33,095 nucleotides of DNA from Planctomycetota bacterium (GTDB lineage Bacteria; Planctomycetota; UBA8742; JACQVU01). Each line of letters opens with the position of its first letter. Position 1 is the first letter of the stretch. The stretch is from the NCBI GenBank assembly GCA_016209585.1, contig JACQVU010000012.1:1-33095 (forward strand), given 5' to 3'. The notes below the pieces were generated by a model. The model saw only the letters and a program-made list of their open reading frames with translations. It did not search any database and had not been told where the DNA came from. Positions 12,001 to 31,181 of this stretch are shown here, in pieces. A program made the translations under genes and the position numbers.

Positions 12001-15000
12001 GCTTCGCCGCGCCCGACTTCGGCTCCACGGCGCTTGCCTGGACGCTTGACCCCGCCTCCGTCGACACCAATCTGCTCGACGTCTCCATCGTCAACGCCGC
12101 GTCCGGCATCGTCACGGTCACGCCCAAGACCAACGCCTTCGGAAACGACGACATCACCTTTACCCTCACCGACAACAACGGCGGCGTCACTTCCAAGACC
12201 AACGTCACCATCACCGTCCAGAGCGTGAACGATCCCCCCGTCTTCGGCGGCCTGCCCGACGTGGGCATCGCCACCAACTCCGCCGGCCTGCAGGACGTGA
12301 TCGCCCTGCCGGCCTACGCCTCGGATGTCGAGAGTTTCCCCTCGCTGGTCTACACCATCGACTCCCAGTCCAACGCCGCGATCTGCAACGTCACCATCGA
12401 CGGCTCGAACTTCGTCGATCTCGGCGCCACCGGCGCCACCGGCGGAACCAACACCGTGGTCATCCGCTGCTCCGACGGCGCCCCCTCCGACGACAAGACC
12501 GACACCTTCGTCGTCACCGTCGCCGGCGACCTCTCCTGGGTCGGCAAGTGGAACTACCGCAAGAACCTCACCTTCACCGCCGCCGCCGGCGCCTATTACG
12601 CTGACCTGACCATCTCCGACGCCGGAACGCTCGCCCACATGCGCGCCGACCGCGCCGACGTGCGCATCCTCACCGCCGGCCAGGAGACAGCCTACAACCT
12701 CATCACCACCAATCCCCTCCGCGTCCGCTGGAACCTCACCATTCCCGCGGCCGGGTACACGGCCGACACTTACATCTACTACGGCAACCCCGCAGCCGCG
12801 GCGCCCTCGTACTCGTTCACGCCCAACGCCACCTCCCTCACCCCGCGCGTGATGCTGGAAGACTCTACCTTCATCCGCCGCTGGTCCGACGCCATCAACT
12901 GGAGCCCCATCCTGGCGCCCACGGCCTTCACCAACGTCACCGTCAACACCGGCTACACCAACGCCCCGCTGATCGACGCCACCGCCGCGGCCCGCGCGGT
13001 GACCGTCGGCGTCGGCGCCACGCTGGACTTCGGCGAGGGCAACATCACCCTCACCGCCGGCGACGACGTGGCCGTGAACGGCACGCTCACGCTGCGGGAA
13101 GGCTCACGCCTGGCGCTGGTGTCCAACTCCACCACCAACGCCACCACCAAGGGGGTGATCGTCAGCGCCACCGGCTCGCTGTCGGCGAACGGCGCGGCCT
13201 TCGTCTCCGGCAGCGCCGGCGCGCTGACCAGCGAAACGCTCATCTCCGACCCCGGCGCGTTCACCGGCAAGAACTACATCGGGAAATGGATCCACATGAC
13301 CTCGGGCCTGGCCCGCGGGCGGTACTACTCGATTCTGCTCAACAACAACAACTCCCTCACCCGCGCCGATACCTCCAGCGCCACCGACACTGCCGGAACG
13401 CTCGACCCGGCGCTCAAGCGCATTTCGTGCGGGGGCGAGATGATCGCCTCCGACGGCGAACACGTCGGCCGGTACGTGAAAGACCTCACCGGCTCCACCG
13501 GCTATCACCGCATCGTCCGCACGGTGAACGCTTCTCCCGACCTCATCTATCTCACTGGCGACCTCACGAACTTCACCGTCGGTGACGACTACGAGATCAC
13601 CGACGGCGTCCAGGCCGGCGATGGCTACGAGGTGATGCAATTCGCGGAAGTCACCTCCGCTGCCCTCGACGGCGTCTCCAACGGCTACCTCCTGCTGCAA
13701 GACGGGGCCGAGGCCACTCTCCAGCGCGCCGACCTGCACGCCCTCGGCGCCAACTTCACCGACAAGCAGGGCTTCACCGCCAAGGGCATCACGGCCATGG
13801 GCGGCGCGGGGGAGGGCCTTTCGATGAACACCGTCCGCGTCCGCGATGGCTACGTCGGCCTGCGGCTGGAGACCACCACCGACCTGATGGCGGAGAACTT
13901 CGAGGTCACGGGCTGCGCCAGCCACGGCGTGCAGATGGCCAGCGGGTCGTCGCGCGCCCTGTTCAGCACCGTGCGCCTGGCCAGCAACGGCGGCGACGGG
14001 CTGCGCGCGGAAGCCGCGGGCGGCACGGGCGCGGTGCTGTACGACGTCACGGCGGCGAGCAACGGTGGCGCCGGTCTGCGCTTCCTGTCCGGGACGGGCA
14101 GCGTGGCCATCATCAAATGCGCGGCGTACTCCAACGGAGGCGAGGGCATCGTCGCGTCCTCGCTCGACTCGTTCCGGGTCTCGTCGTCGCTGGTGTTTGG
14201 CCAGCGGGCGGGAACCGGGCGCGGCGTTGACTTGGCGGCGGCGACGGACGTGGTGCTCACCGATGACACGATCGAGGCGAACCTCGTGGGGGTGCGCGCC
14301 GCCAACGACGTCACGGGCCTCACCATCTGGGGCGGAAGCCTGGGGTTCAACCAGCCCAACGACACGTGGCAGGCGCAGATGGGCGCGGGCGGGTCCGGCG
14401 CGGTGGTGCAGATGCGTGGGGCGTCGGTGGCGGAAACGAACGTGTTCGACCCCGCGGGCATCGACCAGGCCGGGGATCTGGTGATGAGTCGCGGCCACAA
14501 GACCCCCACGGGCGCGGCGAAGGGCGCAACCTACATCTGGGGCGACTACTCCATCGCCGGAGCCTCCACCGAGAAGTTCAACCGCGCCGACGCCTCCTAC
14601 GCCTCGGCCGCGTCCACGCCGCGGGTGCTGCGGGGAAACAGCAGCGTGGGGGCGGTCAGCACGTCCGACGCCAACGCCACCACCAGCGCCTGGGTGGTGA
14701 CCTACGACAGCGGCGTCGGGAAGTGGACCGTCTTCAATTCGCTCACCGGCGACCAGACGAACGTCGCCACGAGCGGCGTGCCCTATACTTCCGACGGCGG
14801 CGAAGTGACGTTCACGGTCACGGAGTCGTCGCCGCTCCCCTCCGACCTCATCGACTTCGTCACGCTGGCCGCCTCCGGCGACGCGAACACCAAGAAAAGC
14901 GTCTTCTTCGGCCCCACCGACGCCGGTTACAACGGCGGCCTCTCGCGGCTCACGGTTCCAGCCACCTCCACGCTTCAGATGTTGGGGAGCGCGGCCGGTC

Positions 15001-16130
15001 CCACGGCCGTCTCCGGGATGGACGCCAACACCCGCTACCTCTTCCGCGTGCAGGGAACGGTCAACGCCGACCAGTACGCTTTCACGCAGCCCGCCGTATC
15101 GGGGGTGGAGATCGACGGCGCGGCCACGGTGACGGCGCTCTCGAACGGCGCCTTCGACCTCCCCGCCGCCTCCGGCTCGCTGTTGAACTTCTCCACCTAC
15201 ACCGGGGCGGAACTGGTCATTTCCGGCTGCGCGTTCGAGAACTCCGCCGGCGCGGCTGGGGCCTCCAACGTGAAAGCCACCAGCGCCACGACCGACGCGG
15301 TCCGTTTCTCTTCCTTCTCCGGCTCGTTCGCCGGCGAAGACAACGACGACGACCCGGCGGAGCGGGTGCTCTGGGGTTCCGTCAACCTGCCTGACAAGGT
15401 GTACGCCGCCGATCCCCGCCTGGGCGCGCGCGCCGAGGTGGCCGGCGGCTTCAACGTGGGGACGGTGGTGTACGGCGACCTGCTGAACGACCGTATCGCC
15501 GGCCTGGCCTTCACCGCGCGCTACAAGGCCATTGACGCCGTGGTCGCCAAGAAGATGCGCGTGCAGGTCGGCACGGCGGCGGGCCTCGCCGACCTCTGGG
15601 ACTCCGGCATGGTCCGCGTGCCCGACCTCTCCAACAACGACCAGGGATACGACCTGCTCTACCGGGGCGCGTCGCTGGCCTACGGCGTCACCTATTACTA
15701 CCGTGTCCGCTTTGAGCAGGCGACCGGCATCCCCAGCCCGTGGGTCTCCTCCCAGTTCACCGTGCAACGCCCCGTGTCGCGCACCACGGCGGCGGGCACG
15801 TTCCGAAACGCGCCGGGCGGTCTGATGATCCGCGGCCGCGCGGTGGGGGCGCAAGCCTTCCTCGCTCCCACGGGAGCCACTTCCGCCTCCGTTGACGTCT
15901 GGGTCAAGAAGAAGGCCGGGTACAGCGGGGAGGCCACGCTCACGCTCTTCGACCCCGCGGGCAACCAGGCCGCGTCGATCAGCACCGACGCCGGCTCGAA
16001 CGACGCCTGGAAGAAGTACACCATCGCCGGCGCCATCTCGCAGTCCGGCGGTTGTCGGTTGGAGTTCTTCCTGCCGGACCCGGCGTCGGAAGTTTACGTT
16101 GACGACGTGGTGGCGACGTTCTCGCCGTAG
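1..16130 (+). CDS. Giant repetitive surface/adhesin-like protein, 5'-partial (>5,357 aa in the window). It combines beta-helix-like N-terminal repeats, 6 x (FG-GAP/VCBS propeller + Ig/cadherin-like) modules, DUF2341-like and PbH1 parallel beta-helix regions, and a C-terminal jelly-roll-like domain.
   Basis: A single uninterrupted frame runs from nt 3 to the TAG at 16128-16130. The GTG at 57 is not the real start. Codons 3-56 (ANVTLTNNSSIDLTGTITV) continue the same repeat seen later (ANITLTSNTTVNLSGTTTV), so the gene extends upstream of the window. Recurrent Ca-binding FG-GAP loops are present (ADFDNDGDLDxxF, EDFNNDGxxDxV, AADFDxDGxxDF, AGDFDGDG). Ig-like units have the form LxWSVDxxxVNTALF...ITPVAxxxGxDDITxxLxDxNG...TDVTVTV. 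Confidence 0.9.
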   Translation, partial: ANVTLTNNSSIDLTGTITVAGTLNASNAGTSIAFLGSVLQTSGAGVINVAGALTAGATSVLDLYDGATGGTLKFTATSGTPMPDTFGTVDFQGSTVEYESLFISDVTMQTRYNAAASTISYNNLIIDNAAAATIKAVTPAGTLLKVDGTLTVDDGTFTPAGNGDFNNVTIDSGQGELFEGGANTYTVSGNWSNAAVGNYSAGTSTVDFDGTGTVTLSTFNNVIISAGTRTIITSNTITVNGTLEMKGGATWALAGFDPVVTGLATATGNFTISSSVAGTLALNGGLTVSGGDLTLSAGAATTVTVSNTATTVNATRALTVGANITLTSNTTVNLSGTTTVTGVLNAGATTAIAFTGGTLATSGAGTINVTNASGVFTESGTSIIDLYDGATAGSLTFSATSGTPMPNTFDTVDLAGSTVTYNAVVIAADTVIQTQYAGGNISYYNLTLQNGGATGAQYVTTGAGTLVVANTLTIDNRAGVGVGEFAPATNGDFANVSILGGATFFAGSYSHTVSGNWANSGTFTAGTSTVEFDGAGGGTASVTLNGTSSFNNVRLNKSGGATLTVSAAMNVNGTAQFTAGRISHSTLAVTIVGLSTFDGSVTIQATTGAMTLSGGWAFTNGTLLTASTPTIVVAGTGSESGTSTLDLYDGTSGGTLRFTSASGTPMPATFDTIDFGTNSTIEYESTPTADVTVQTTYAGGTISYYNLTIDNGAGAAFKMITPASPLLKVDGTLLIDDGNFSLGGNADLNNVTIGGTGASEKLIIAGAGATVTVSGAWTNSIGAAGLDAGTSLVEFDGAGAVTASGAQTWYDVKINKSGGGTVTSTGVWTISRHLTLQAGTWDQGTANQAHTVAGDWTAAGGSFTADSGTITFNGTGTQTLTAASNFYNLSVTGTSNTVQTASNITAGGTLTVNNTFNLTASNSLSVTGAVTIGASGTLTFAGTNTVTFSSTVAQDGVLTFSGAATVTVGGNVTSTGGVTSFDGGGSMSVTGIYDMDAGAGARLNVNAATVTLSSYLRGRVAGQQVNITSGSLTCAYFSNAGSPWWSYFDLNVTGAGMFKTTGTTSQGSYGAVSITGAGSLVAQGSGTYYTRFFGTVTLGNSGAVIDVNGQLRIDAGGTLTAAGFAPKIYVAEDFLAGTPSGYGTFTPGNSEVIFDGTLAAVVYPTTFYDLTINKSAAVTVTQSSTGTPIVVQNTFTVQGSGTYTANSKAHDFNDVTITAGTFNATAVTHTVSGNWSMTGGTFTNTGSTIKFDGTGTIASTGAFDGFEVAAGAGTHTVSGAVTVSGVGTITSGTLAVNSSVTLTLNGAMTVNGGALTSAGTLAVNGGWTDNAGTVNCTGGDAVLGGSSGTAFTSKIGSVFYDLTLNKNALATTVTYSGDVAVSRNLTLTRGTFDMQNASTIGVSDATTLNVAATNGKLRAMGTSAANRITIEGDTATPADGFTFDVYGVLEARNFRVINPDANGLRVHPGATVIELNYATFDYPTSGGCLLNITGVAAGFPTTNQGSSFSDNGLPTGTISNVKADATTVSVEFTDFSGSLAHNVVVAENRDDDPMDRIRWRDASFPTISSLADNIPVRQNSPQIVDLSAFEFDVEDGGGQRFIAVGDDTGRVFVVEVLGGGSFGAAVQLTDTSSYVRGVGVADFDNDGDFDVVFAAGNGNAYRIKRKSISSPLVAGDFGSPAIIGAFTAATYGMDIGVEDFNNDGFMDFVVSANNAYYTLFKNNGNGTFQTTLLTSTGPANGRAKTAADFDRDGAADFVSLDSGTTNVYFWKGFGDGGFARSTQSAAVTATNGYGVAAGDYDGDFLPDLMVENSGTGLFSFLKGLGNGRFAAPASAGQTAPATGAIGFDAYDVNSDGKMDVVVSMGAGYDLLYYPGNGNGTLGAAVTIQLNFTTSASYTLAAPTHGNTRLNWSVDTDTVNPALMSISVSNSAADQITITPVASATGSDDVTFILSDSTGFVSLKTDVTVNVNAASAAAPVISSRLDNISVSYNQPLNVDLSQFGSDPDQVWGRDYFVTDNDSSNVYLVQINGDGTYGAPVNFGDQGNYIRGSAVADFDNDGDLDFIIARNADVQLYRRVSGGASIETTDFLGPTLLGPFTSSTWGMDLACEDFNGDGSMDIVFSGNNGYYYCFLNDGNGRFAALTLTTAGPSAGRGKAAGDFNGDGFLDFISADSGTTTLHVWQGDGAGNFARTDLATVLPTADAYGLTAGDFDGDGKDDAVANDTSGNLYFLKGTGNGTFEARVLIEPSPTTATAGGVALDRGDFNGDGNLDLVVCDDPDDDLLVLSGNGDGTFAAAVTVAANFTTGTERMVAAPTHGSRVLAWSVDPASVNTALLSATISDVNAGILSITPVTGQSGTDEITLILSDNNMGTVSKTDVTVTVSPFVGNPPVVEATADNFTTTDDTVLKVDLSRFGWDPDDANGRSFVVVGDDSTRLYAMAYNGDGSFGSPVSLGDVGNTIRGAGIADFDNDGDLDVVFGDGSGNAWFIQRVAHSSPLQAADFTTKVLAGTFSASSYGMDICVEDFNNDGKSDFIVGGNNGVYTMFRGNGNGTFTTSVIDPANPANGRAKDAADFDEDGFMDFVSLYSGAGNLYLWRGNGAYAFSRTNYAAAAPTADGYGIAAGDFNHDGHQDVVVQNNVTGLFYFLAGKGDGTFYAGVSTGQSVPAGAVNFDAVDMTGDGKLDLLVVANAVDTSFRVFPGNGDGTFSAATLIPATFSSTNLVAACPDYGSTTLTWSVDAPSVNTALFSASVTDATADTLTITPVASAFGQDDITLVLTDSNSGVTQKVDVTVQILSAAAAGDPVIQNSLDAIRVREDTVRQVDLSGYGYDPDSANGKPFICYADENGIFWVCESTGAGTWGTPISLGDLGGSLNGYGVADFDNDGDLDIVYARNNDTCYILRRIAVSVPMVAGDFAPTVNIGAFNDGGSPGHGMDVATEDFNHDGNMDFVVSGNNGDYRLFKGTGLGTFTMSTLDAAVPGSGRGKDAADFDNDGNPDFVALENTNAYIHLWKGDGQGNFQRLEIVGGVPVANSYGCAAADFDSDGDADLIVNNTTGGVYYVPGNGNLSFGSPVLLFTITGETNNIGMDAHDWDNDGLPDLLVSADVANDVIYYRNTTSGGTVSFAAGVNVHADFTATTNRGVACPNFGSKKLRWSIDAASVDTNVFTAEITSTVTQRLTITPVAGASGTDDITLVLNDANGGQTQKTNVTVTVSAVADGNPLIEGLFDNLTFRQNQIGFIDASAFGFDADAANGKPYFVVNDDDTNFYVVQINGDGTFGTPVNLGNWGGSDNVHGVAIADFDNDGDLDILFGDDDGKVMIVRRIANSIPLVASDFSAKAVAGTFTSASWGMDMACGDFNNDGNQDAVISGNNGVYALFIGRGDGFFDTTEITASGPANGRGKDAADFNGDGKIDFASICSGTRHLTLWFGDGAGGFTETTYNNFIPVADSYALAAGDFDGDGRADLVISNDTTGAFSFYKGAGAGTFASGVATGITHTGDSGVDAVDFNGDGKLDLIISQDSNNTAVFLYTGVGNGTFNNAGSIAVTFTNNNRNVATPDYGSKALTWSVDPATVNTALFNITTENGPAALFSVTPVAGQSGSDDVTFVLTDNNGGTVQKTDVTITYTAVAYANPLISAKLDNFTTPEDTGFTFDLSRFGSDPDGGNGKHYVVATDDTGNVRTIPLNLDGTYGAAIVLGDLGDLIEGIGIADFDNDGTLDYVFADGVATYGEQVEGGGQISELFFAKRVGTSNTMSSDWAIPVPVGEFTASGPSSYDIFLGWTTPTNYGMDICVEDFNNDGKMDLIVGGDWTVIDLFIGNGDGTFEKTTVTSSLTGNTRAKDAADFDRDGNMDFAMTLSNDNEIYVHMGDGAGGFTTSTLTNYAYNSGSYALAAGDFDGDHLPDLVTGNSGNGRYYFIKGNGDGTFQTGVECGTQDAAFTKIAGNATLDAIDVNNDGLLDLIIHYDSGHTVRVYTGNGNGTFAFTNGAPILTTMSGTDLGFAAPDFGSTALAWTLDPASVDTNLLDVSIVNAASGIVTVTPKTNAFGNDDITFTLTDNNGGVTSKTNVTITVQSVNDPPVFGGLPDVGIATNSAGLQDVIALPAYASDVESFPSLVYTIDSQSNAAICNVTIDGSNFVDLGATGATGGTNTVVIRCSDGAPSDDKTDTFVVTVAGDLSWVGKWNYRKNLTFTAAAGAYYADLTISDAGTLAHMRADRADVRILTAGQETAYNLITTNPLRVRWNLTIPAAGYTADTYIYYGNPAAAAPSYSFTPNATSLTPRVMLEDSTFIRRWSDAINWSPILAPTAFTNVTVNTGYTNAPLIDATAAARAVTVGVGATLDFGEGNITLTAGDDVAVNGTLTLREGSRLALVSNSTTNATTKGVIVSATGSLSANGAAFVSGSAGALTSETLISDPGAFTGKNYIGKWIHMTSGLARGRYYSILLNNNNSLTRADTSSATDTAGTLDPALKRISCGGEMIASDGEHVGRYVKDLTGSTGYHRIVRTVNASPDLIYLTGDLTNFTVGDDYEITDGVQAGDGYEVMQFAEVTSAALDGVSNGYLLLQDGAEATLQRADLHALGANFTDKQGFTAKGITAMGGAGEGLSMNTVRVRDGYVGLRLETTTDLMAENFEVTGCASHGVQMASGSSRALFSTVRLASNGGDGLRAEAAGGTGAVLYDVTAASNGGAGLRFLSGTGSVAIIKCAAYSNGGEGIVASSLDSFRVSSSLVFGQRAGTGRGVDLAAATDVVLTDDTIEANLVGVRAANDVTGLTIWGGSLGFNQPNDTWQAQMGAGGSGAVVQMRGASVAETNVFDPAGIDQAGDLVMSRGHKTPTGAAKGATYIWGDYSIAGASTEKFNRADASYASAASTPRVLRGNSSVGAVSTSDANATTSAWVVTYDSGVGKWTVFNSLTGDQTNVATSGVPYTSDGGEVTFTVTESSPLPSDLIDFVTLAASGDANTKKSVFFGPTDAGYNGGLSRLTVPATSTLQMLGSAAGPTAVSGMDANTRYLFRVQGTVNADQYAFTQPAVSGVEIDGAATVTALSNGAFDLPAASGSLLNFSTYTGAELVISGCAFENSAGAAGASNVKATSATTDAVRFSSFSGSFAGEDNDDDPAERVLWGSVNLPDKVYAADPRLGARAEVAGGFNVGTVVYGDLLNDRIAGLAFTARYKAIDAVVAKKMRVQVGTAAGLADLWDSGMVRVPDLSNNDQGYDLLYRGASLAYGVTYYYRVRFEQATGIPSPWVSSQFTVQRPVSRTTAAGTFRNAPGGLMIRGRAVGAQAFLAPTGATSASVDVWVKKKAGYSGEATLTLFDPAGNQAASISTDAGSNDAWKKYTIAGAISQSGGCRLEFFLPDPASEVYVDDVVATFSP
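90..2640 (+). repeat. Three divergent tandem copies of a ~260-320-aa N-terminal repeat unit inside the giant CDS
   Basis: The signature block occurs three times. Copy 1: LDLYDGATGGTLKFTATSGTPMPDTFGTVDFQGSTVEYES (nt ~183-302). Copy 2: IDLYDGATAGSLTFSATSGTPMPNTFDTVDLAGSTVTYN (~1152-1268). Copy 3: LDLYDGTSGGTLRFTSASGTPMPATFDTIDFGTNSTIEYES (~1935-2057). Each is followed by I(S)YYNLT(I/L) and (H/Y)TVSGNW motifs. The window-edge residues suggest a further copy upstream. Confidence 0.8.
4693..12224 (+). repeat. Array of six ~1.24-kb protein-coding modules, each an FG-GAP/VCBS beta-propeller plus an Ig/cadherin-like domain
   Basis: Module starts were read from the recurring (N/D)P(P)(V/L)I..LDN......(V/F)DLS.FG.D(P)D motif at nt ~4693, 5931, 7164, 8406, 9658 and 10894. 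The next unit begins at ~12225. Spacings are 1238, 1233, 1242, 1252, 1236 and 1331 nt. Module 6 is longer because of an insertion (ADGVATYGEQVEGGGQISELFFAKRVGTSNTMSSDW...). Confidence 0.85.
12225..12528 (+). other. Terminal cadherin-like/Ig domain of the giant protein, with no propeller attached
   Basis: VNDPPVFGGLPDVGIATNSAGLQDVIALPAYASDVESFPSLVYTIDSQSN...VVIRCSDGAPSDDKTDTFVVTV. The VNDxPV start and TV-ending strand are typical of bacterial cadherin-like repeats. Confidence 0.55.
12529..12830 (+). other. DUF2341-like domain within the giant protein
   Basis: WNYRKNLTF...YADLTISDAGTLAHMRADRADVRILTAGQETAYNLI...LRVRWNLTIPAAGYTADTYIYYGNPAA matches my remembered DUF2341 pattern (W.yRk.itv ... D(i)RF.d..g..l ... 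vWVkv..l.....iy.YYGN). Confidence 0.55.
13830..14350 (+). other. Parallel beta-helix (PbH1-type) repeat region within the giant protein
   Basis: There are about 22-24-aa periodic coils: ASHGVQMASGSSRALFSTVRLASNGGDGLRAEAAGGTGAVLYDVTAASNGGAGLRFLSGTGSVAIIKCAAYSNGGEGIVASSLDSFRVSSSLVFGQ... The repeated (S)NGG(D/A/E)G(L/I) turns are typical of right-handed beta-helix proteins. Confidence 0.6.
15760..16127 (+). other. C-terminal jelly-roll/CBM-like domain of the giant protein. No recognisable sorting signal.
   Basis: ...ASVDVWVKKKAGYSGEATLTLFDPAGNQAASISTDAGSNDAWKKYTIAGAISQSGGCRLEFFLPDPASEVYVDDVVATFSP*. The (E)VYVDDV ending and alternating beta pattern resemble carbohydrate-binding/galactose-binding-like modules. 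I saw no LPXTG, PEP-CTERM or T9SS-type tail. Confidence 0.35.
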
Positions 16131-16145
16131 GGGCATCGGATCTCC

Positions 16146-16471
16146 ATGGGTGACATCGAGGCGTACCCGAGGGATCCGCGCGGCGCGTTGTGCCTGGTGT
16201 GGGGCGAGTCCGCGCCGTGAGCGGAACGGAGGGCGGCATGCGGACGCCGATCACCGTCGAGTGGATTCGGCGGTGCGCGGAGCGGCAAGAGTACATCACA
16301 TCCCGTCACGCCGCTGAGGAGATGCTGGACGATGGGTTGGAGGAGCCGGTTGCGCTGTCAGCCGCGTCAGCGGGCGGTCGATCATCCGGGCGGGGCGGAT
16401 CGCGCGGAACCGGCGCCGGAAGGGCCTGTTTTTCCAGCGGCGGGGCTGATGGGTGGCGCGGGGAGCGGTAG
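16146..16471 (+). pseudogene. Frameshifted, mosaic DUF4258-like (toxin-family) gene fragments
   Basis: Frame 0 at 16146-16220 reads MGDIEAYPRDPRGALCLVWGESAP*. This resembles the central G(E)IIE.YP.D.P.PS.L.LG block of DUF4258 proteins. Frame +2 continues GRVRAVSGTEGGMRTPITVEW, like GRPLHVV....IITVY. The same frame then shows a DUF4258 N-terminal-like block, YITSRHAAEEMLDDGLEEPVAL (ATG at 16238, preceded by GGAGGG), which decays into Gly/Ser/Arg low complexity. The order (middle/C-terminal part first, then an N-terminal part) and the frame changes indicate remnants rather than an intact gene. Confidence 0.35.
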
Positions 16472-16583
16472 CAGTGCCGCGATGAGATGCTCTGGGCGGA
16501 GTTTCTCCGCGGTGGTTGCCACGTCTTCGGGAGGTCTGGTAGGGTACTCGCCCGGAGACACCGACGACCGGTCGTTCACGTTC

Positions 16584-19500
16584 ATGCTCGCTGGAAAACC
16601 CTTTTGGCGGATCGATACTCGCGGTCCCGCGAGGGAGATCCGCGACGCCGCGCGAACCGCGACCACTGAAGAAGACCTCAAAATACGGGTGGAGCCGCTG
16701 CTTCAGGCGGTCTTTCGCGAAACCGGCGTTGACGTCACCATCCGGCAGTACGAGAAGACCACGGCGGTCACCGCGAAGCGCATCGACGTCGTCTACGGGT
16801 ATCTCGTTATCGAGTACAAGGCGCCCGGAAAACTCGGGAACGCGCGGGCCCTCGACGGGGCGATACAGCAACTTCAGGGTTACCTCCAGGAAGAGTCTCA
16901 GCGCCACGCGGGTGACGCGGAAGGATTTCTCGAAAAGGCGGTCGGCGTGATCATCGACGGCGAGCAGATCGCTTTCGTGCGTTACAGCCGCAAGTCGCGC
17001 CTCTTGCCGCCCCCTATTCCACTGGACGATCAGAAGGGTCGGGATCTCTTCCCTTCGGCGACGCCGCGCAAGGGGTTCCAGGTGCAGGGGCCTTTCGCGG
17101 TCGACGGAGAAAGCCTGGCGTGTCTCCTGATCTACGTGCGATCCGCCGCGCGCCGGCCGCTCCGCGCGGAACACCTCGCGGAGGTTTTCGGGCCGGACAA
17201 TGAAGTCGCCCGCGTCGCCGTCGCCGAACTCTATTCCGCCGTCATGCGCGGCCAGCGCCCGAGCGCCCATTCGCGGGTCGAAACTCTTTACCGAGAATGG
17301 GAACGCATCTTCGGCGCCGTCTACGGCGAGCGCCTTGAGAAGGCAGAAGCGGCAGCCAACGAAACCGCTCGCCTCTATGGCATCGCGACTGGTGTCCGCA
17401 TCAAGCCGCTGCTGTTCGCGATTCACACCTACTACGGCCTGCTCATGAAACTCGTCGCCTCCGAGTTGCTGGCCCTGCAGAAGGAGGAGTTCCGGTCTCG
17501 CTCGATCGTCGACGGCCTGGAGGCCGCGGATGACGCGACGCTTCAGGAGCGGTTGACCTATCTGGAAAGCGGCGGCGATTTCCGCGCCGCGGGCATCACG
17601 AACTTCCTCGAGGCCGACTTCTTCGGGTGGTACCTCGACGTCTGGAGCCGGAAGATCATCGATTCCGTGCGCGGCATGATACGCGCGTTGGCCGGTTTCG
17701 AGCCGGCGACACCGGTGCTGGAACCGGACTGGACCCGCGATCTCTTGCAGAAACTCTACGAGATGGTGGTGCCGCGCGCGCTTCGCCACGGTCTCGGCGA
17801 GTATTACACGCCGGACTGGTTGGCGGACTACCTCGTGGATCGGAGCGGGTACACGGGCGATCCCGCGACCCGTTTTCTTGACCCGGCGTGCGGATCGGGG
17901 ACGTTTCTGGTGCAGGCGATCCGCCGGGTGACGGAGCACGTGGCAGCGAAGGGCAGCGTGGCGTTGAAAGAAGCGGGGCGGGCAATCGTGGCCGGCGTCG
18001 CCGGCTTCGATCTGAACCCTCTCGCGGTTCTGGCGGCGCGAACGAATTCCCTGATCGCTTTCGCGAAGTTCCTCCCGCACGTCAGGCCGATTTCGATTCC
18101 GGTCTATCTGTGCGATTCCGTCGCGCCGCCGGATCAGGCCGAGGCGAGCGACGGCAATTCGAGGCAACTGTATCCCGACGACACCATCGTCTTTCGCACC
18201 AGGGATCACGACTACGTCTTTCCACTGGCGATGAAAGACACGGAACGCATCGCGGACTTCTGCGGTCTCGTGCTGCAAGGGGTGGCCGGGAAAATGGTAC
18301 CCGCGGCCTTCCGGAAACTCCTGACCAGGAAATTTCCGCTGGCCGAGGCCGAGCAGGACCGGCTGATGGAGATTTACAGCCACATCAAGCAACTCCACGA
18401 CGAGAAGCGCGATGGCATATGGGCACACTACATCAAGAACGCCTTCGCGCCGGTGTACGTGGGCAAGTTCGACTACGTCGTGGGAAACCCGCCGTGGATC
18501 CGTTGGGGCTATCTTTCCGACGAGTACCGCGCGCGCACGCTTCCACTGTGGCACGGTTACGGTCTCTTCTCCCTCAAGGGCCACGAGACGCGCCTTGGCG
18601 CGGGCGAGAAGGACTTCTCCATGCTTTTCACGTACACCTGCGCGGATCGCTACCTGAAAGACGGCGGCACGCTCGCGTTCGTGATCACGCAGGAGGTGTT
18701 CAAATCCAAGGGCGCTGGCGAGGGGTTCCGCCGTTTCCGCATTGGCGACAAGGGCGCGCCGCTCAAAGTGCTTTGGATGGAAGACATGGTGCGCCTGCAA
18801 CCCTTCCAGGCGGCGAACAAGACAACGATCTTCGCCGTCCGGAAGGGCGCGGCGACGATCTACCCGGTTCCCGTGGTCCAATGGACTCGGAAGAGCGGTG
18901 TCGGCAAGATTCCGCCGGAGTGGCCGCTGAGCGAAGTGCGCGACGCCACGGAGCGCGTGGAGCAAGTCGCCGTGCCCGTGGATGCGGCCAAGCCCGTTTC
19001 CTCCTGGCAAACGGCGAGTCGCCCGGCGCTTAAGGCCTTTGGGGCAGTGAAAGGCGCGAATGCGTACAAGGCCTACCTCGGAGCCCGTGTCGAGCCCTAT
19101 GGCGTGTTCTGGCTCAACTTCATCGAACTCCGCCCCGATGGGCGGATCGTGGTCGAGAACCAGCACGATCGCGGCAAACGCGAGATCAAGCAGGTTCGCG
19201 ACGCCATCGAGTCTGATCTGGTCTATCCGGCGGTGGCGGGGGGGGATCTCACTCGGTACGGTGTCAACAAGCATTTCTATGCGCTCGTGTGTCAAGACCC
19301 ATCCCGTCGCTCGCCGTTCTCCGAAGATTGGATGATTGAGAACGCGCCGCTCACGCTCGCCTACCTCCATCAGTTTCGGGACGTGTTGCTTTCACGTGGC
19401 TCGAACGTGGTGAGGCAGTTCGCCGAAAAGACCGAGTTCTACGCGATGTACGGCATCGGTCCATACACCTTCGCACCCTATCGCGTCGCCTGGAAACGCA

Positions 19501-19877
19501 TGGCGAGCCACATGGCTGCGACGGTGCTGTCGAAACTCGACACGCCCTTCGGCCCGAAGCCCGTGATCTCCACGGATACTACCTCGTTGATGGTCGCGAC
19601 CTCTCGCGCGGAAGCGCATTATCTCTGCGCGGTGTTGAATTCGGACATCGTCAACGCCTACATCGCCAGTTTCTCTTCCGGCGGGCGCGGTTTCGGCGCG
19701 CCGTCGGTGATGTGGAATCTCGGCGTTCCGAAGTTCGAGAAGAAGAGGGCGCTCCACATGGAACTCGCCGAACTTTCCGAAGAGGCTCACCGGCGCGTTC
19801 AAAAGGGAATGCCGATTGCGGATGTGGACGAACAGGTGAACCTGGACGTGCGAAACCTATGGAATATCAAATCCTGA
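16584..19877 (+). CDS. Type IIG/IIL-like bifunctional restriction-modification enzyme: N-terminal PD-ExK nuclease, helical spacer, gamma-class N6-adenine DNA methyltransferase and C-terminal target-recognition domain
   Basis: The nuclease motif RIDVVYGYLVIEYK (D68-X8-E77-X-K79 counted from the ATG at 16584) lies at nt 16785-16820. GEYYTPDWLADYLVD sits before motif I. AdoMet motif I is FLDPACGSGTFLV (nt 17880-17909). Catalytic motif IV is VVGNPPWIRWG (NPPW at nt 18486-18497). The C-terminal part has a TaqI-C/TRD-like block, EAHYLCAVLNSDIVNAYI. The ORF is open from 16332, so the start is uncertain. 16584 is preferred because it removes Arg/Gly-rich junk, avoids the upstream fragments, and places the D/ExK near residues 68-79. 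Confidence 0.8.
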   Translation: MLAGKPFWRIDTRGPAREIRDAARTATTEEDLKIRVEPLLQAVFRETGVDVTIRQYEKTTAVTAKRIDVVYGYLVIEYKAPGKLGNARALDGAIQQLQGYLQEESQRHAGDAEGFLEKAVGVIIDGEQIAFVRYSRKSRLLPPPIPLDDQKGRDLFPSATPRKGFQVQGPFAVDGESLACLLIYVRSAARRPLRAEHLAEVFGPDNEVARVAVAELYSAVMRGQRPSAHSRVETLYREWERIFGAVYGERLEKAEAAANETARLYGIATGVRIKPLLFAIHTYYGLLMKLVASELLALQKEEFRSRSIVDGLEAADDATLQERLTYLESGGDFRAAGITNFLEADFFGWYLDVWSRKIIDSVRGMIRALAGFEPATPVLEPDWTRDLLQKLYEMVVPRALRHGLGEYYTPDWLADYLVDRSGYTGDPATRFLDPACGSGTFLVQAIRRVTEHVAAKGSVALKEAGRAIVAGVAGFDLNPLAVLAARTNSLIAFAKFLPHVRPISIPVYLCDSVAPPDQAEASDGNSRQLYPDDTIVFRTRDHDYVFPLAMKDTERIADFCGLVLQGVAGKMVPAAFRKLLTRKFPLAEAEQDRLMEIYSHIKQLHDEKRDGIWAHYIKNAFAPVYVGKFDYVVGNPPWIRWGYLSDEYRARTLPLWHGYGLFSLKGHETRLGAGEKDFSMLFTYTCADRYLKDGGTLAFVITQEVFKSKGAGEGFRRFRIGDKGAPLKVLWMEDMVRLQPFQAANKTTIFAVRKGAATIYPVPVVQWTRKSGVGKIPPEWPLSEVRDATERVEQVAVPVDAAKPVSSWQTASRPALKAFGAVKGANAYKAYLGARVEPYGVFWLNFIELRPDGRIVVENQHDRGKREIKQVRDAIESDLVYPAVAGGDLTRYGVNKHFYALVCQDPSRRSPFSEDWMIENAPLTLAYLHQFRDVLLSRGSNVVRQFAEKTEFYAMYGIGPYTFAPYRVAWKRMASHMAATVLSKLDTPFGPKPVISTDTTSLMVATSRAEAHYLCAVLNSDIVNAYIASFSSGGRGFGAPSVMWNLGVPKFEKKRALHMELAELSEEAHRRVQKGMPIADVDEQVNLDVRNLWNIKS

Positions 19878-20704
19878 ATCCAGGGAACGCCGAGTACCCG
19901 AAGCGGCTCGTCCAGCGGATGGGTACGGATGCGCCAACGCTCTACTGGAACGGCCCGCTTCGCCTTCTTGAGCGGTTCACGATGGCCGTCGCTTCGGCCG
20001 ACCACACGCCAGGAAAGGCCATGGTGGCGACGTGGGACATGCTGTTCACCATTCGGGAGTTCGGCCTGAACTACATCGGCGGTTGGCATGCGGTCATGGA
20101 AACGGAGATTTTCCGCCTCGCGCTGGATCGCAAAACCGACAAACAGTACACCCGATCGCTGGTGATGTTCACTGCCCGCGGGCTGGCGCGCGAGACCTGG
20201 GACGGCTTCCTCGGCGACCGCTTCGGATACCGGGGGCCGTTCACCGGATTCCCGGAGAAAGAGGAATACTACCGTCGCGGGCGCGACGGGGAAGTGCTGG
20301 TGCTCTCCATCACCGAGCCGGACTTCAAGAGGATGCTTCTCACGAACGTTCGCCGCCGCAATTTCGTCGCCTGCATGCTGGCCGACGTGGTCTACATTCC
20401 GTTCGCCGAAAAAGGGAACAAGACCTATCAACTGTGCAAGCAAGTGGTGGCGAGCGGCGTTCCGATTTTCACCTGTGACTGCGACGTGAACCATGACCTG
20501 TTCGACCTGGGAATACCGAAATTCAACCGCAAGAACGTCGGCAGGCACCTGGAAAGCCTCGGCGCTTCGAAAGAGGCTGCGCCGCCGTTTCCGCCCCGCG
20601 AAGAGAGGGCCGCAGAGAGCGCGCGCCATCAGTCTCTCGTGCTGTCGCGGCCCGAACCTCGGCGGGTCGGCGGCAAGCAGCGCGAGTTGTTTCCCAGGAA
20701 GTGA
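19859..20704 (+). CDS. Divergent DprA/Smf-like (SLOG/Rossmann-fold) protein, 281 aa, translationally coupled to the RM gene
   Basis: The ATG at 19859 lies 19 nt inside the end of the RM gene (TGA 19875-19877). It aligns by eye to DprA. YPKRLVQRMGTDAPTLYWNGPLRLLERFTMAVASA matches YP..L..i.daP.vLy.kG.l.ll....vAvVGSR. LNYIGGWHAVMETEIFRLAL matches ivSGlA.GID.aAH.aAL. EVLVLSITEPDFKRMLLTNVRRRNFVACMLADVVYIPFAEKGNKTYQLCKQVVASGVPIFTC matches lvlSEy.pg..p....FP.RNRIIAGL..gvivvEA..rSGSLiTa..A.e.GrdVFaiP. It has no SAM or winged-helix DprA end domains and carries a basic, disordered C-terminal tail. Confidence 0.7.
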   Translation: MEYQILNPGNAEYPKRLVQRMGTDAPTLYWNGPLRLLERFTMAVASADHTPGKAMVATWDMLFTIREFGLNYIGGWHAVMETEIFRLALDRKTDKQYTRSLVMFTARGLARETWDGFLGDRFGYRGPFTGFPEKEEYYRRGRDGEVLVLSITEPDFKRMLLTNVRRRNFVACMLADVVYIPFAEKGNKTYQLCKQVVASGVPIFTCDCDVNHDLFDLGIPKFNRKNVGRHLESLGASKEAAPPFPPREERAAESARHQSLVLSRPEPRRVGGKQRELFPRK

Positions 20705-28790: not shown

Positions 28791-28907
28791 CAATCAATCC
28801 CGGGGGAGCGCCGAAAGCGAAGCGAACGCCCCGATGCGATGCGAGGCGCCGCGGCCGACCGCGACCCCGTGGCCGCCGGACGCGCGCGCCGCGTCTGGAA
28901 ACGCGGC

Positions 28908-28937
28908 ACTCTACGGCGCGGTTCTCCCCCATGTCAA
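28908..28937 (-). promoter_or_regulatory. Candidate sigma70-type promoter for the NPP-like/tricorn/rluB gene string
   Basis: The minus strand reads TTGACA (28937-28932), an 18-nt spacer, then TAGAGT (28913-28908). A perfect -35 hexamer is rare in sequence this GC-rich. The implied TSS near 28900 gives a leader of about 110 nt that begins with a 7-bp hairpin (28888-28907). This is pattern-matching only. Confidence 0.25.
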
Positions 28938-29443
28938 GCGCGGCGCCGGGGCGCGGCGGGGTGCGGATTGAACGTGTACGCGCCAAGTGTGGGCGGCCCT
29001 ACCCAACCTCGCGGGGGCGCCGGGGAGATCACTTTCGCGACCAGGCCCGCCGGCGTTCAACACGGAGACCCGGAGAGACGGAGAGCGCACGGAGAAGAAC
29101 CCGGTCGCGGACGATCGGACGAATCCGACCGATCGGACCGATCCCCCGTCCTGTGTCCCGCGCCCAACCACCGCCGCCGGTGGGGCAGGCCTCCGGGCCT
29201 GCCTGCGCGCAATCGCCGGCAGAGACGCCGGCGCCACCGTCGGCTCCGCCCCCGCGACGCCACGATGGCCTCGTACACCATCAATCCGCACCCGGCGCGG
29301 CCGAGGCCCGCCCGCCGGCACACCGACGGGCGGCTGAAGCCGAAGATCTCCCGCGTGAAGGCCGGTTTCGGCGGGAATGGGCCCGCTGGTGAGTGATGTG
29401 CGGACGCGATGGAACACCCTCCTCCGCGGAGGGAAAAAGGCGA

Positions 29444-29872
29444 TCAGGAGCGAGGCCGCGCCATGAAGACGAGAATCTCGCCGTAGTACCCACCACAAAC
29501 GTCTTCGGGTGATTGGGAACAGATGTCTTCGAGATCGCCCAACTTGTGAAGCCACGAACCGTTCGGACTCTGCCTGGCGGCATGGGTCCACTTGCCGTCC
29601 CTCTGATACAAAGCCACTTTCTCGATTCCTTCTTCCGGATCGGCGTTATCGCATACCTTGTATCCCAACGCTTCGAAAAGGTTCACGAGCACGCGCTGGT
29701 CCTCGCTCAACTCGATACCGTCGGGCCAGTAGTAGCCGCCGGGGTTCGTATCCCACCTTCGATACGTTTCTCCCACCGCGAACGCGATGCAGTTGTACGT
29801 TTTATCCTCCGGGCTGGTCACCCGATACCGATCCGGCTGCAATCGGGGAAAGTCGTTCTTGTCCCAGACCAT
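29444..29872 (-). CDS. Small conserved hypothetical protein with a Cys/His pair suggesting a papain-like (NlpC/P60- or CHAP-like) hydrolase fold
   Basis: 142 aa from the ATG at 29872, which lies 2 nt after the upstream stop. The motifs YNCIAFAVGE...YYWP...LGYKVC...IEKVALYQRDGKWTHAARQSPNGSWLHKLGDLEDI...YGEILVFMARP match a widespread uncharacterised family I recall as YNCIAWA...THAARQL.nG.W.SKLG. The invariant-looking C (NC) and H (THAAR) are spaced as in Cys-His hydrolases. The function is inferred only. Confidence 0.6.
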   Translation of the reverse strand: MVWDKNDFPRLQPDRYRVTSPEDKTYNCIAFAVGETYRRWDTNPGGYYWPDGIELSEDQRVLVNLFEALGYKVCDNADPEEGIEKVALYQRDGKWTHAARQSPNGSWLHKLGDLEDICSQSPEDVCGGYYGEILVFMARPRS

Positions 29873-29874
29873 GG

Positions 29875-30387
29875 TCAGCAGTACCCGTTGCGCGCTCCCC
29901 ATTCCAACCAGGCTTTGGCCATGCGATCGAGAATCCCCGCGTCTTCCGCCGGAACAGGGTTCTCTTCGGTGATGTAGTGAAGAGCCGGAAACCAGTGATC
30001 CGGCCCTTTCTTCAACTCTTCAAAGACGAACGGAAGCGCGGCACGGCCCATGCCGATGATCTTCTGGTATGAGTCGTGCATGCACATGTCGCGAACGCGG
30101 CTGCTAACGCTCGGACGATTGGCGTACCAGTCTTCGGCCAGACGGCGGAACTTCTGACGATTCTCCACGTCTGCGGGCACGTAGAGACCGGGCAACGGGA
30201 GACTCGACCCCTGCGAGAAGCCGCGCTTCGTTGAAGTGACAACTCGCCCCCCCTTGACGGTCACGTGCCATGTGTCCGCCGCCCCGTCGAAAGTGGTTCC
30301 GAAACCAGGCTGGGAGGGATCTTCCGCTTCCAACGTCAGCGGCGCGACACACCCCTCCTGCCGCCTCGGCGTCGTCACAGGGGTCAT
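29875..30387 (-). CDS. Hypothetical protein, 170 aa, middle gene of the three-gene cassette
   Basis: The ATG at 30387 overlaps the upstream stop (ATGA at 30387-30384). The ORF track extends to 30441, but that start would overlap the upstream gene by 58 nt. The C-terminal half, FRRLAEDWYANRPSVSS...HDSYQKIIGMGRAALPFVFEELKKGPDHWFPALHYITEENPVPAEDAG...AKAWLEWG, resembles a recurrent small helical family (hpaY..IigmG..alP.iL.eL....dhWf.aL..iTg.nPv). I know of no assigned function. Confidence 0.6.
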   Translation of the reverse strand: MTPVTTPRRQEGCVAPLTLEAEDPSQPGFGTTFDGAADTWHVTVKGGRVVTSTKRGFSQGSSLPLPGLYVPADVENRQKFRRLAEDWYANRPSVSSRVRDMCMHDSYQKIIGMGRAALPFVFEELKKGPDHWFPALHYITEENPVPAEDAGILDRMAKAWLEWGARNGYC

Positions 30388-31181
30388 GCCTTGCGCCTTC
30401 CCCGGCGAATGCCGGTCCTGGCGATGGACTTGATGTGCCACAAGTACTCGCGGAACAAGACCATCGACGCCTTGAAACCTCGCGGTCCTCCCCGCTGCGT
30501 TCCCACCTCCAGGGCCACGGTGGCCGCGAAAACCACCTCCGGGACGTCAGCGTCAACCGAGACCCCGACCTCGGACAACGCCTCGCGCGGTTTCGCCGTG
30601 TCCACAAAGCACTTGGAGAGCACGTTCAGGTGAGTCCCCCCTCCGAGCACCTTGCTGGGCGCCGGTCGGTTCACCTGATAGACGAAGTCACAGGAATTCT
30701 CCGTGTCGATATGAACAGTCTTCAGGCATGGCGCCATGATTCGCAACGCCTCGTTTTGACTGCTCCCCGCGTCTGCGACGAGTGCCGCCTTCACGCCTTG
30801 GCGGTCCAGTAATGGGAGATCGGAATGCGAATACCACTTCTTGATGAGTGACTCGAACAGGTCAAGGACCTCACCGCACGCGCCCATCGCTGGAACCCGG
30901 CGAAGCCGATCCGCCGTTTTCGGTGAAGCGATCGGAAGCAGCGCCCAGATGACTTCATTGCGTGCCACGCCGAGCGCGAGCGCCGCGAACTCGTTCTCCA
31001 AGACGCCGGTCGTCCACGCTTCCGGCGCCTCGGGCGGCCCGTCCGCACGCCGACTATCCGGCGCCACCGGCGAAACCCGCTTCCACCACTTGTCCGTGAC
31101 CGAAGGAGCGGGAGCCTGGGCGAACGTTGAGACCAACGCGACCCCCCGGAGGTTCCAACGATTGGTGTCCGTTTTCACCAT
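30384..31181 (-). CDS. Hypothetical protein, 265 aa, first gene of the three-gene cassette
   Basis: The ATG at 31181 is preceded by a GGAG 8 nt upstream. The amino-acid composition is balanced, unlike the Arg/Pro/Gly-rich alternative-frame ORFs here. I recognise no family motif. Confidence 0.6.
   Translation of the reverse strand: MVKTDTNRWNLRGVALVSTFAQAPAPSVTDKWWKRVSPVAPDSRRADGPPEAPEAWTTGVLENEFAALALGVARNEVIWALLPIASPKTADRLRRVPAMGACGEVLDLFESLIKKWYSHSDLPLLDRQGVKAALVADAGSSQNEALRIMAPCLKTVHIDTENSCDFVYQVNRPAPSKVLGGGTHLNVLSKCFVDTAKPREALSEVGVSVDADVPEVVFAATVALEVGTQRGGPRGFKASMVLFREYLWHIKSIARTGIRRGRRKA

Follow-up and report, generated by a model that had tools for sequence, protein, structure and literature searches.

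A stretch of 33,095 nucleotides from a Planctomycetota bacterium (GenBank assembly GCA_016209585.1, contig JACQVU010000012.1), referred to here as the window, contains three minus-strand genes at positions 29444-31181 that are named A, B and C in the order in which they are read. A first-pass annotation, made from the letters of the sequence, described them as one coupled and compositionally foreign cassette of a shape typical of toxin/immunity or anti-phage modules. The present analysis identifies B and C as a conserved gene pair whose gene anatomy, family conservation, strict pairing, fusions, predicted fold class and base composition were established directly. The features of the locus are as follows.

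30384..31181, minus strand: gene A, an open reading frame (ORF) of 265 aa, putatively a lineage-specific ORFan in a variable slot 5' of the conserved pair
29875..30387, minus strand: gene B, 170 aa from its ATG, with residues 1-70 disordered and unconserved and residues ~73-170 forming a conserved helical domain
29444..29872, minus strand: gene C, 142 aa, a DUF7689 protein and proposed effector, predicted to be a cytoplasmic thiol enzyme with a papain fold (NlpC/P60-like)
30384..30387, minus strand: ATGA overlap of the A stop (TGA) and the B start (ATG), read from the sequence
29878..30171, minus strand: C-terminal domain of B, which is conserved and has six helices and a HEAT-like core motif; proposed to partner and neutralise C
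29789..29791, minus strand: codon of Cys28, at the amino terminus of helix 28-32 (motif Y-N-C); predicted nucleophile, 100% conserved
29582..29584, minus strand: codon of His97, in strand 94-101 (motif T-H-A-A-R-Q); predicted general base, 100% conserved
29516..29548, minus strand: segment with His109 (29546-29548) and Ser119 (29516-29518), swapped relative to Ser109/His119 of the family
29444..31181, minus strand: compositional island formed by A, B and C, with low G+C content at third codon positions (GC3), from G+C windows and GC3

The three ORFs of 265, 170 and 142 aa were confirmed from the sequence. At the A/B junction (CGCAAGGCATGACCC), the TGA stop of A shares bases with the ATG start of B, and at the B/C junction (TGCTGAccATGG) the genes are separated by a gap of 2 nt. 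Alternative starts would extend B to 188 aa (GTG at 30441) and C to 152 aa (an upstream ATG at 29902). The tight coupling that had been proposed from this arrangement is also supported by related loci: over 155 pairs, the C domain begins within B in the median case, 7 nt short of its end (interquartile range -12 to +1), indicating that coupling is a trait of the family. A signal peptide or transmembrane segment was absent from all three proteins. Together, the Pfam, NCBIfam and PADLOC models identified DUF7689 in C and nothing else; matches to Ribonuc_red_2_N, APH and blaCHC (E 0.02-0.13) were far under the cut-offs and were treated as noise.

The G+C content of the 500-nt segments from 29501 to 31000 was 0.574, 0.630 and 0.620, compared to 0.708-0.738 on the 3' side and a mean of 0.668 for the window as a whole. 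GC3 was 0.77 for A, 0.74 for B and 0.72 for C, while the histidine kinase, phosphodiesterase, tricorn protease, pseudouridine synthase and alpha/beta-hydrolase genes of the window ranged from 0.88 to 0.94. From this gap, it is clear that the compositional contrast is real at the level of codons (synonymous sites), and the foreign appearance ascribed to the cassette is upheld by computed values. The annotation also held the island to be bounded by long non-coding DNA. This description fits the downstream side, where a 650-nt spacer follows C, but not the upstream side, where 90 nt lie between A and the histidine-kinase gene. At the ends of the cassette no terminator, no flanking direct repeat or target-site duplication, and no Rfam family above threshold was found. 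In the best explanation, the B-C pair reached the window by horizontal transfer, with or beside an unrelated orphan gene A.

The DUF7689 protein C and the C-terminal domain of B

C belongs to DUF7689 (PF24738) over its full length, matching the Pfam model with 111.2 bits against a cut-off of 22.6 (residues 17-137, model positions 1-117 of 118). The family is without an assigned function. Approximately 690 relatives were found, mostly stand-alone proteins of 140-160 aa, and the match ran end to end in all 61 relatives tested. The window protein has no hydrophobic amino terminus (maximum Kyte-Doolittle score, KD(19), of 0.43), no additional Pfam domain and no export or wall-binding feature.

An AlphaFold2 model of C, calculated from a 61-sequence alignment, had a predicted local distance difference test (pLDDT) score of 95.4 and a predicted template modelling (pTM) score of 0.90. 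In this model, Cys28 lies at the amino terminus of helix 28-32, His97 lies in the next long strand, and residues 107-110 and 116-119 make up the hairpin that follows. N27, C28, H97, W107 and K110 are invariant among 241 unique DUF7689 domains, and all five are present in the window protein; the Cys (YNC) and His (THAARQ) that had been noted as conserved-looking are both in this set. Three further positions are nearly invariant, namely H119 (239 of 241), S109 (237) and D116 (236). The invariance of C28 and H97 and the near-invariance of H119 suggest that the likely triad is Cys-His-His (Cys28, His97 and the His119 of the family). This is also the catalytic pattern of canonical NlpC/P60 enzymes. 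A subgroup of the family (L027, L049, L019 and L032) has the motif WRSKMGxGP[LV]IEH, in which Leu or Val takes the place of Asp116 and His119 is kept, which argues against Asp116 as the third catalytic residue.

A Foldseek search of the C model against the PDB gave NlpC/P60 endopeptidases as the informative top matches (2hbw, 2evr, LytE, RipD and MepS). Against BFVD, NlpC/P60, CHAP and transglutaminase-like proteins recurred, and the top two matches (probability 1.0, TM 0.55) were unnamed giant-virus-type proteins. As far as the order of secondary-structure elements in the model shows, the likeness to AvPCP (2hbw), NpPCP (2evr), LytE (8i2d) and MepS consists of a Cys at the amino terminus of a helix, followed by a β-sheet with a His and a second His. 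C differs from these NlpC/P60 and CHAP proteins in its weak scores, its predicted cytoplasmic location without export or wall-binding features, and its motif, which is YNC and not DCSG or QC. There is also no link through hidden Markov models (HMMs): the NLPC_P60, CHAP and Tox-PL Pfam models matched neither the window protein (E<=1) nor any of the 61 relatives (E<=5). A phmmer match in the PDB to Leu/Phe-tRNA protein transferase (E=0.07) was dropped since the family profile does not reproduce it. A papain fold is a reasonable assignment for C from the structural model, while strict membership of NlpC/P60 is not supported by sequence models. The earlier suggestion of an NlpC/P60- or CHAP-type hydrolase holds for the papain-like Cys/His fold and not for the named families.

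The window copy of C departs from its family at the proposed third catalytic position. It alone among the 241 domains has Ser at position 119 and His at position 109, the other exception at 119 being its own database copy, and the family motif WTSKLGxxEDIEH becomes WLHKLGDLEDICS. In the AlphaFold2 model, a single hairpin (107-110, 116-119) has both positions on its neighbouring strands, and the swap is reciprocal. Either the third catalytic His has shifted from one strand to the next, or the window protein lacks activity.

In B, the conserved part is limited to the last 95-100 residues. AlphaFold2 gave pLDDT values of 48-71 for residues 1-70 of the window protein, while most of residues 72-170 scored above 94 and formed a six-helix bundle. 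The recurrent helical motif that the annotation had picked out in this protein proved to be the core of a very large conserved domain (YQxIIGMGxxAxPxxxxEL...DHWFxAL..IT.ENPVP), which closes with a terminal W..WG...GY. When a profile of the B domain was searched against a library clustered at 50% identity, 9130 representatives were matched at E<=1e-3 and 7212 at E<=1e-10, nearly all with the domain at the extreme carboxy terminus of proteins of 100-240 aa. The domain stops 0-6 residues short of the protein end in 148 of 153 proteins. The extension that precedes it has a median length of 30 aa and a lower quartile of 1 aa, so that about one quarter of B proteins are essentially without cargo. 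No Pfam model matched over the B domain in 150 members, and the domain has no relative in NCBIfam. Against the PDB, the best Foldseek match had E=1.1, and an hmmsearch with the profile gave ClpC/ClpB at E>=0.26 only.

The amino-terminal region of B is variable in content. RHH_5, AF2212-like and NikA-like N-termini each occur on single B proteins among 150. A protein of 475 aa (P0224) has a Walker-A P-loop NTPase with AAA_22/STAND-type matches ahead of the B domain, and one of 449 aa (P0128) has two tandem B domains after an amino terminus that is HicB-like by eye. In an atypical branch (P0123 and P0124, at L172 and L173), the B domain is not C-terminal and is followed by an additional extension of ~100-140 aa; the next genes encode unrelated proteins of 71 and 211 aa that are not DUF7689.

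Pairing, distribution and restriction-modification links

Loci with C were collected from one genome per species using a 12-sequence alignment. This gave at least 587 loci, of which the best 80 were examined. These 80 span at least 11 phyla, with 36 loci in Planctomycetota, 11 in Chloroflexota and 10 in Acidobacteriota and others in Pseudomonadota, Cyanobacteriota, Nitrospirota and elsewhere, at 37-49% identity to the window protein. Cultured carriers of the pair are Singulisphaera sp. GP187 (L085) and Argonema antarcticum (L074). In 87 loci, comprising the best 80 and the first metagenomic contexts, an ORF with a B domain ends directly upstream and on the same strand in 94 of 98 DUF7689 ORFs; the four unpaired ORFs are frameshifted C fragments or lie at a contig edge, and with these exceptions no solo C was seen in the C-anchored loci. 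In a metagenome scan anchored on B, C was directly downstream of 72 of the 84 B genes with room for it, and the other 12 were solo B. Several solo B genes adjoin MazF-like and PIN-like genes, which were recognised by eye with no model search. The pairwise distances of B and C are correlated (r=0.63 over 125 pairs, compared to a maximum of 0.10 in 200 permutations), and no natural B-C fusion protein was found among 276 proteins.

Several metagenome-assembled genomes have more than one copy of the pair, some copies are in tandem, and five C copies are split and decaying. IS1595 transposases occur near the pair in five loci and resolvases in three, and the flanking genes are otherwise unrelated. 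A survey of the neighbourhoods identified no conserved pathway neighbours and no type VI secretion system (T6SS), type VII secretion system (T7SS) or RHS genes. WD40 and protein-kinase neighbours in 10 loci were set aside because these families are expanded in Planctomycetota generally, and a DnaE2-like polymerase upstream in two loci was taken as lineage synteny. Four Dehalococcoidia loci (L012, L034, L038 and L049) have two tandem B-C pairs, which directly follow an MmeI-type IIG enzyme in three of them. The upstream C copy is split by frameshifts in L012 and L034, and in L038 the identity between the paralogous pairs is 50% for B and 73% for C. In three metagenomic loci (L005-L007), a convergent 609-aa protein with DUF7380 and EMARD_N (PF13910) is encoded ~300 nt past the pair (L005, 5741-7570, minus strand).

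The links to restriction-modification (RM) systems are of two kinds, fusion and adjacency. Six of 80 genomes encode an RM polypeptide that has the B domain as its C-terminus. Five RM domain architectures are represented, and C is directly downstream every time:

L001: N6_Mtase type IIG-like enzyme with B domain; amino terminus PD-ExK-like by eye
L014 and L054: HSDR_N + N6_Mtase type IIG-like enzymes with B domain; Methylase_S also matched in L014
L027: Mrr + helicase + methylase enzyme of 1796 aa with B domain
L071: type III Mod with B domain
L052: half HsdS with B domain

The methylase motifs (NPPF, NPPY or DPPY) are intact in the sequences of the fusions. The pair is flanked by mod and a ResIII-type res gene at L071 and is preceded by hsdM at L052. 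By blastp alone, an RM gene was found within 6 kb of the pair in 14 of ~83 loci. The pair of the window is without an RM partner; the nearest RM gene, encoding an Eco57I-like methylase at 16332-19877, is ~9.5 kb away.

The gene upstream of B and other features of the window

A is probably a real, lineage-specific gene. The G+C content at its three codon positions (0.64/0.50/0.77) follows the periodicity of coding DNA in the frame of A only, which argues that the gene is real in spite of its restriction to this lineage. The protein is soluble, with a maximum Kyte-Doolittle score of 1.43. Homologues of A were found neither among 5.8 billion proteins nor in the related loci, Pfam, NCBIfam or PADLOC, and a comparison with the PDB returned noise only.

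In related loci, the slot upstream of B is occupied by different genes. In 10 of 80 loci, the slot contains a member of the TIGR04255 family (248-279 aa) that runs into the start of B, with a gap of -3 nt in 8 of the 10, and so forms a three-gene operon TIGR04255-B-C (L028, L029, L046, L050, L056, L062, L063, L082, L084 and L087). At L046 a Mod-like methylase gene begins 2 nt past C, and at L084 an N6_Mtase gene lies 3 kb downstream. A 90-aa family takes the slot in six loci and an MmeI-type enzyme is directly upstream in three (gap of 4 nt at L034 and L038). In the remaining loci, the upstream genes are unrelated and often on the opposite strand, so that most B-C pairs are without a coupled upstream gene. 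The recurrent upstream genes gave no meaningful match in PADLOC. TIGR04255 proteins, which are described as 'sporadically distributed' and have no assigned function, share with A the slot and a similar size and not the sequence; a relationship between the two was rejected on an hhalign probability of 0.04 and the lack of an NCBIfam match.

The annotation had treated all three genes as one functional unit. In that explanation, which is doubtful and is compatible with a conflict-module role for B and C, A would be a lineage-specific sensor or third component with the role that TIGR04255 has elsewhere. It draws on the ATGA overlap of A and B, on the low GC3 and coding-type periodicity that A has in common with its neighbours, and on the similar-size TIGR04255 gene and the 90-aa family found in the same slot. 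Since A is without any homologue and is absent from every related locus, co-occurrence supports the B-C pair and not the unit of three. A may be a passenger, or a gene of recent origin, and, because most pairs lack a coupled upstream gene, it cannot be essential for the core activity of the module.

Elsewhere in the window, a second low-GC3 island is found at 16332-20704 (plus strand). It encodes an 1181-aa RM enzyme of the Eco57I/N6_Mtase/MmeI type (GC3 0.79) and an overlapping or adjacent ORF of 330 aa with no Pfam match (GC3 0.72), and ordinary genes occupy the 9.5 kb between this island and the cassette. The first half of the window is filled by a single ORF of 5357 aa (57-16130, plus strand) with strong coding periodicity and a GC3 of 0.91. 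A 91-nt tRNA-Thr reported by ARAGORN within it, on the antisense strand (12390-12480, minus), is probably false, and the G+C content dips to 0.59-0.62 at 11-12 kb. The spacer downstream of C (28794-29443, 650 nt) is 73% G+C. It contains an imperfect inverted repeat with 48-nt arms at 28945-28992 and 29260-29307 that are 73% complementary, a short CGATCGGAC motif in tandem at 29112-29144, where an ALIL pseudoknot match was sub-threshold (22.8 bits against a gathering threshold of 50), and a sigma-70-like promoter match at 28937-28908 that faces the phosphodiesterase gene.

Interpretation of the B-C pair

The most likely reading of B and C, held tentatively, is an autonomous, horizontally mobile toxin-antitoxin (TA) or abortive-infection-type conflict module in which the thiol enzyme C is restrained by B. 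This reading is favoured because the pair is obligate and coupled, its spread is patchy and multi-copy, C copies decay, B but not C was seen solo, and antitoxin-type N-termini are found on some B proteins. It is further favoured by signs of mobility such as transposase and resolvase neighbours and the foreign GC3 of the window copy, by the co-divergence of B and C, and by the enzyme-like conservation and predicted structure of C. The RM fusions and adjacency were also counted as a reason for a toxin/immunity or anti-phage reading. In function, the pair would be a TA-like or defence-associated module made of new domains; DUF7689 itself is already catalogued.

In the proposed mechanism, C would be a cytoplasmic papain-fold thiol enzyme of the peptidase, amidase, deamidase or transglutaminase type with an intracellular target, and it would be produced by translation coupled to that of B. 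The helical domain of B (~95 aa) would bind C and keep it latent. The region before this domain may act as a free slot that is often absent or disordered and occasionally filled by an antitoxin-type DNA-binding domain, a P-loop NTPase, or an RM enzyme or subunit. We infer that B binds C and that C is toxic, with a substrate and a trigger.

Several results weigh against a conflict module. The neighbours of the cassette, a histidine kinase and a phosphodiesterase, are ordinary genes and not a defence island, and in most other loci the pair is surrounded by ordinary metabolic genes with no recognisable defence island. PADLOC-DB v2 gave zero matches for A, B or C at E<=1. C is absent from PLSDB plasmids and GenBank phages and was found in just 4 of 2.9 million viral contigs (IMG/VR). 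Unlike type II antitoxins, the window B with its disordered amino terminus and most other B proteins have no DNA-binding domain, and the asymmetry of solo B and solo C compares two samples, each of 80 loci, that were anchored on different genes. The best match of C in the PDB is weak (E=0.046, probability 0.63, TM 0.34), and the C family profile found nothing among PDB sequences, leaving no sequence link to any named peptidase family. Since the window copy lacks the near-invariant His119, it may be inactive. Finally, in the open-access text that was searched, no paper was found on DUF7689 (PF24738), on the B domain or the B-C pairing, or on TIGR04255; neither the upstream partner of DUF7689 nor its RM link was described there, and the NetFlax paper makes no mention of papain, NlpC or HEAT. 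The toxin/immunity or anti-phage role put forward in the first-pass annotation is retained on the grounds of pairing, spread and RM links, without support from a PADLOC model or a defence island.

Among known systems, type II TA modules offer a parallel in architecture. In both cases, a small upstream gene of neutraliser-like type is coupled in translation to a downstream enzyme (~140 aa for C), the adjacent co-directional pair is conserved, the spread is patchy and multi-copy, orphans of the upstream gene occur and orphans of the downstream gene do not, and RHH or AF2212-like N-termini are present on occasion. B and C nevertheless match no known toxin or antitoxin family, and conservation in B falls on a folded domain of helices, not on a disordered tail. 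To our knowledge, a papain-fold enzyme is not an established class of TA toxin.

The fusions to five RM domain architectures suggest that the B domain may also serve as a dock for the effector on defence proteins. In its extended form, this proposal makes the B domain a portable dock that would tether a latent DUF7689 effector to restriction enzymes, NTPases and small baits as a widespread and so far undescribed second line of 'guard' immunity, with C firing when a phage disables or engages the protein that carries the dock. In this extended form it is rather unlikely. The precedents are PrrC-EcoprrI and RloC, latent effectors that are guarded by type I RM systems; PrrC is an ABC-ATPase plus an anticodon nuclease. 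C likewise sits in an RM operon at L071 and L052, and, as far as sequence can tell, physical tethering of C to an RM enzyme is implied by the six B-RM fusions. In the main reading too, and by the same logic, a latent C held on an RM-fused B could fire once the restriction enzyme is disabled; purely by analogy, anti-restriction proteins might be what activates it. The differences from PrrC and RloC are the fold of C, the tether, which is a discrete fused domain, and the lack of an RM partner for most B-C pairs, including that of the window.

It is unlikely that the B domain is instead a C-terminal tag and C a dedicated thiol peptidase or transferase that trims, cleaves or modifies tagged proteins without toxicity, for example to control restriction-enzyme activity in the manner of ClpXP in restriction alleviation. 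The position of the domain is as expected of a tag, almost always at the extreme carboxy terminus with a conserved W..WG...GY tail. The cargo ahead of it is very diverse, including five RM domain architectures and an NTPase, and a papain-fold enzyme is encoded next door. For most B proteins, however, there would be nothing to process, given that the amino-terminal extension is essentially missing in about a quarter of them, has a median length of 30 aa and is often disordered. Solo B genes also persist without C, and no cleavage motif was identified.

Less probable again is a role outside of conflict, in which C would be a thiol amidase or acyltransferase serving housekeeping or metabolism, with B as its chaperone or regulatory subunit. 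The ordinary metabolic surroundings of most loci, the lack of a PADLOC match and the absence from plasmids and phages would suit such a role. It fits poorly with a patchy distribution over at least 11 phyla at ~45% identity, with multiple, tandem and decaying copies, with transposase and resolvase neighbours, with RM fusions, and with the foreign codon usage in the window, and a pathway that might be served is not apparent from conserved neighbours.

The Tox-PL1 signature is listed as 'NC, H, D' (PMC3482391). While the NC...H pattern of C recalls this signature and its top structural matches are cell-wall endopeptidases, an exported peptidoglycan hydrolase (NlpC/P60, CHAP or a polymorphic-toxin effector) with an immunity protein is very improbable because C has no signal peptide, transmembrane segment, trafficking domain or cell-wall-binding domain and its partner, B, is encoded upstream rather than downstream and is also cytoplasmic; T6SS, T7SS and RHS neighbours and matches to the NLPC_P60, CHAP and Tox-PL models are likewise lacking. 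In polymorphic toxin/immunity systems, the toxin domain is at the C-terminus of a protein that also has trafficking domains, and the immunity gene comes directly after it. This arrangement also differs from that of C, which is a stand-alone protein of 142 aa with genes downstream that are unrelated or on the opposite strand.

The B domain is found in more than 9000 clusters at 50% identity, yet no Pfam model, structure or literature was found for it, and its obligate partner is a domain of unknown function. This places B-C among the more abundant uncharacterised two-gene modules of environmental bacteria, especially Planctomycetota, Chloroflexota and Acidobacteriota. The repeated, independent fusion of the B domain to five RM domain architectures provides a testable hypothesis on how restriction systems may be coupled to a second effector. 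If B and C are a conflict module, a papain-fold enzyme would join the intracellular toxins and defence effectors. If the B domain is a dock, the pair would provide bacterial defence, in at least 11 phyla, with an effector class and an adaptor domain that are both new, and the Ser109/His119 swap in the window would be a natural case of a catalytic His that has migrated to a neighbouring strand.

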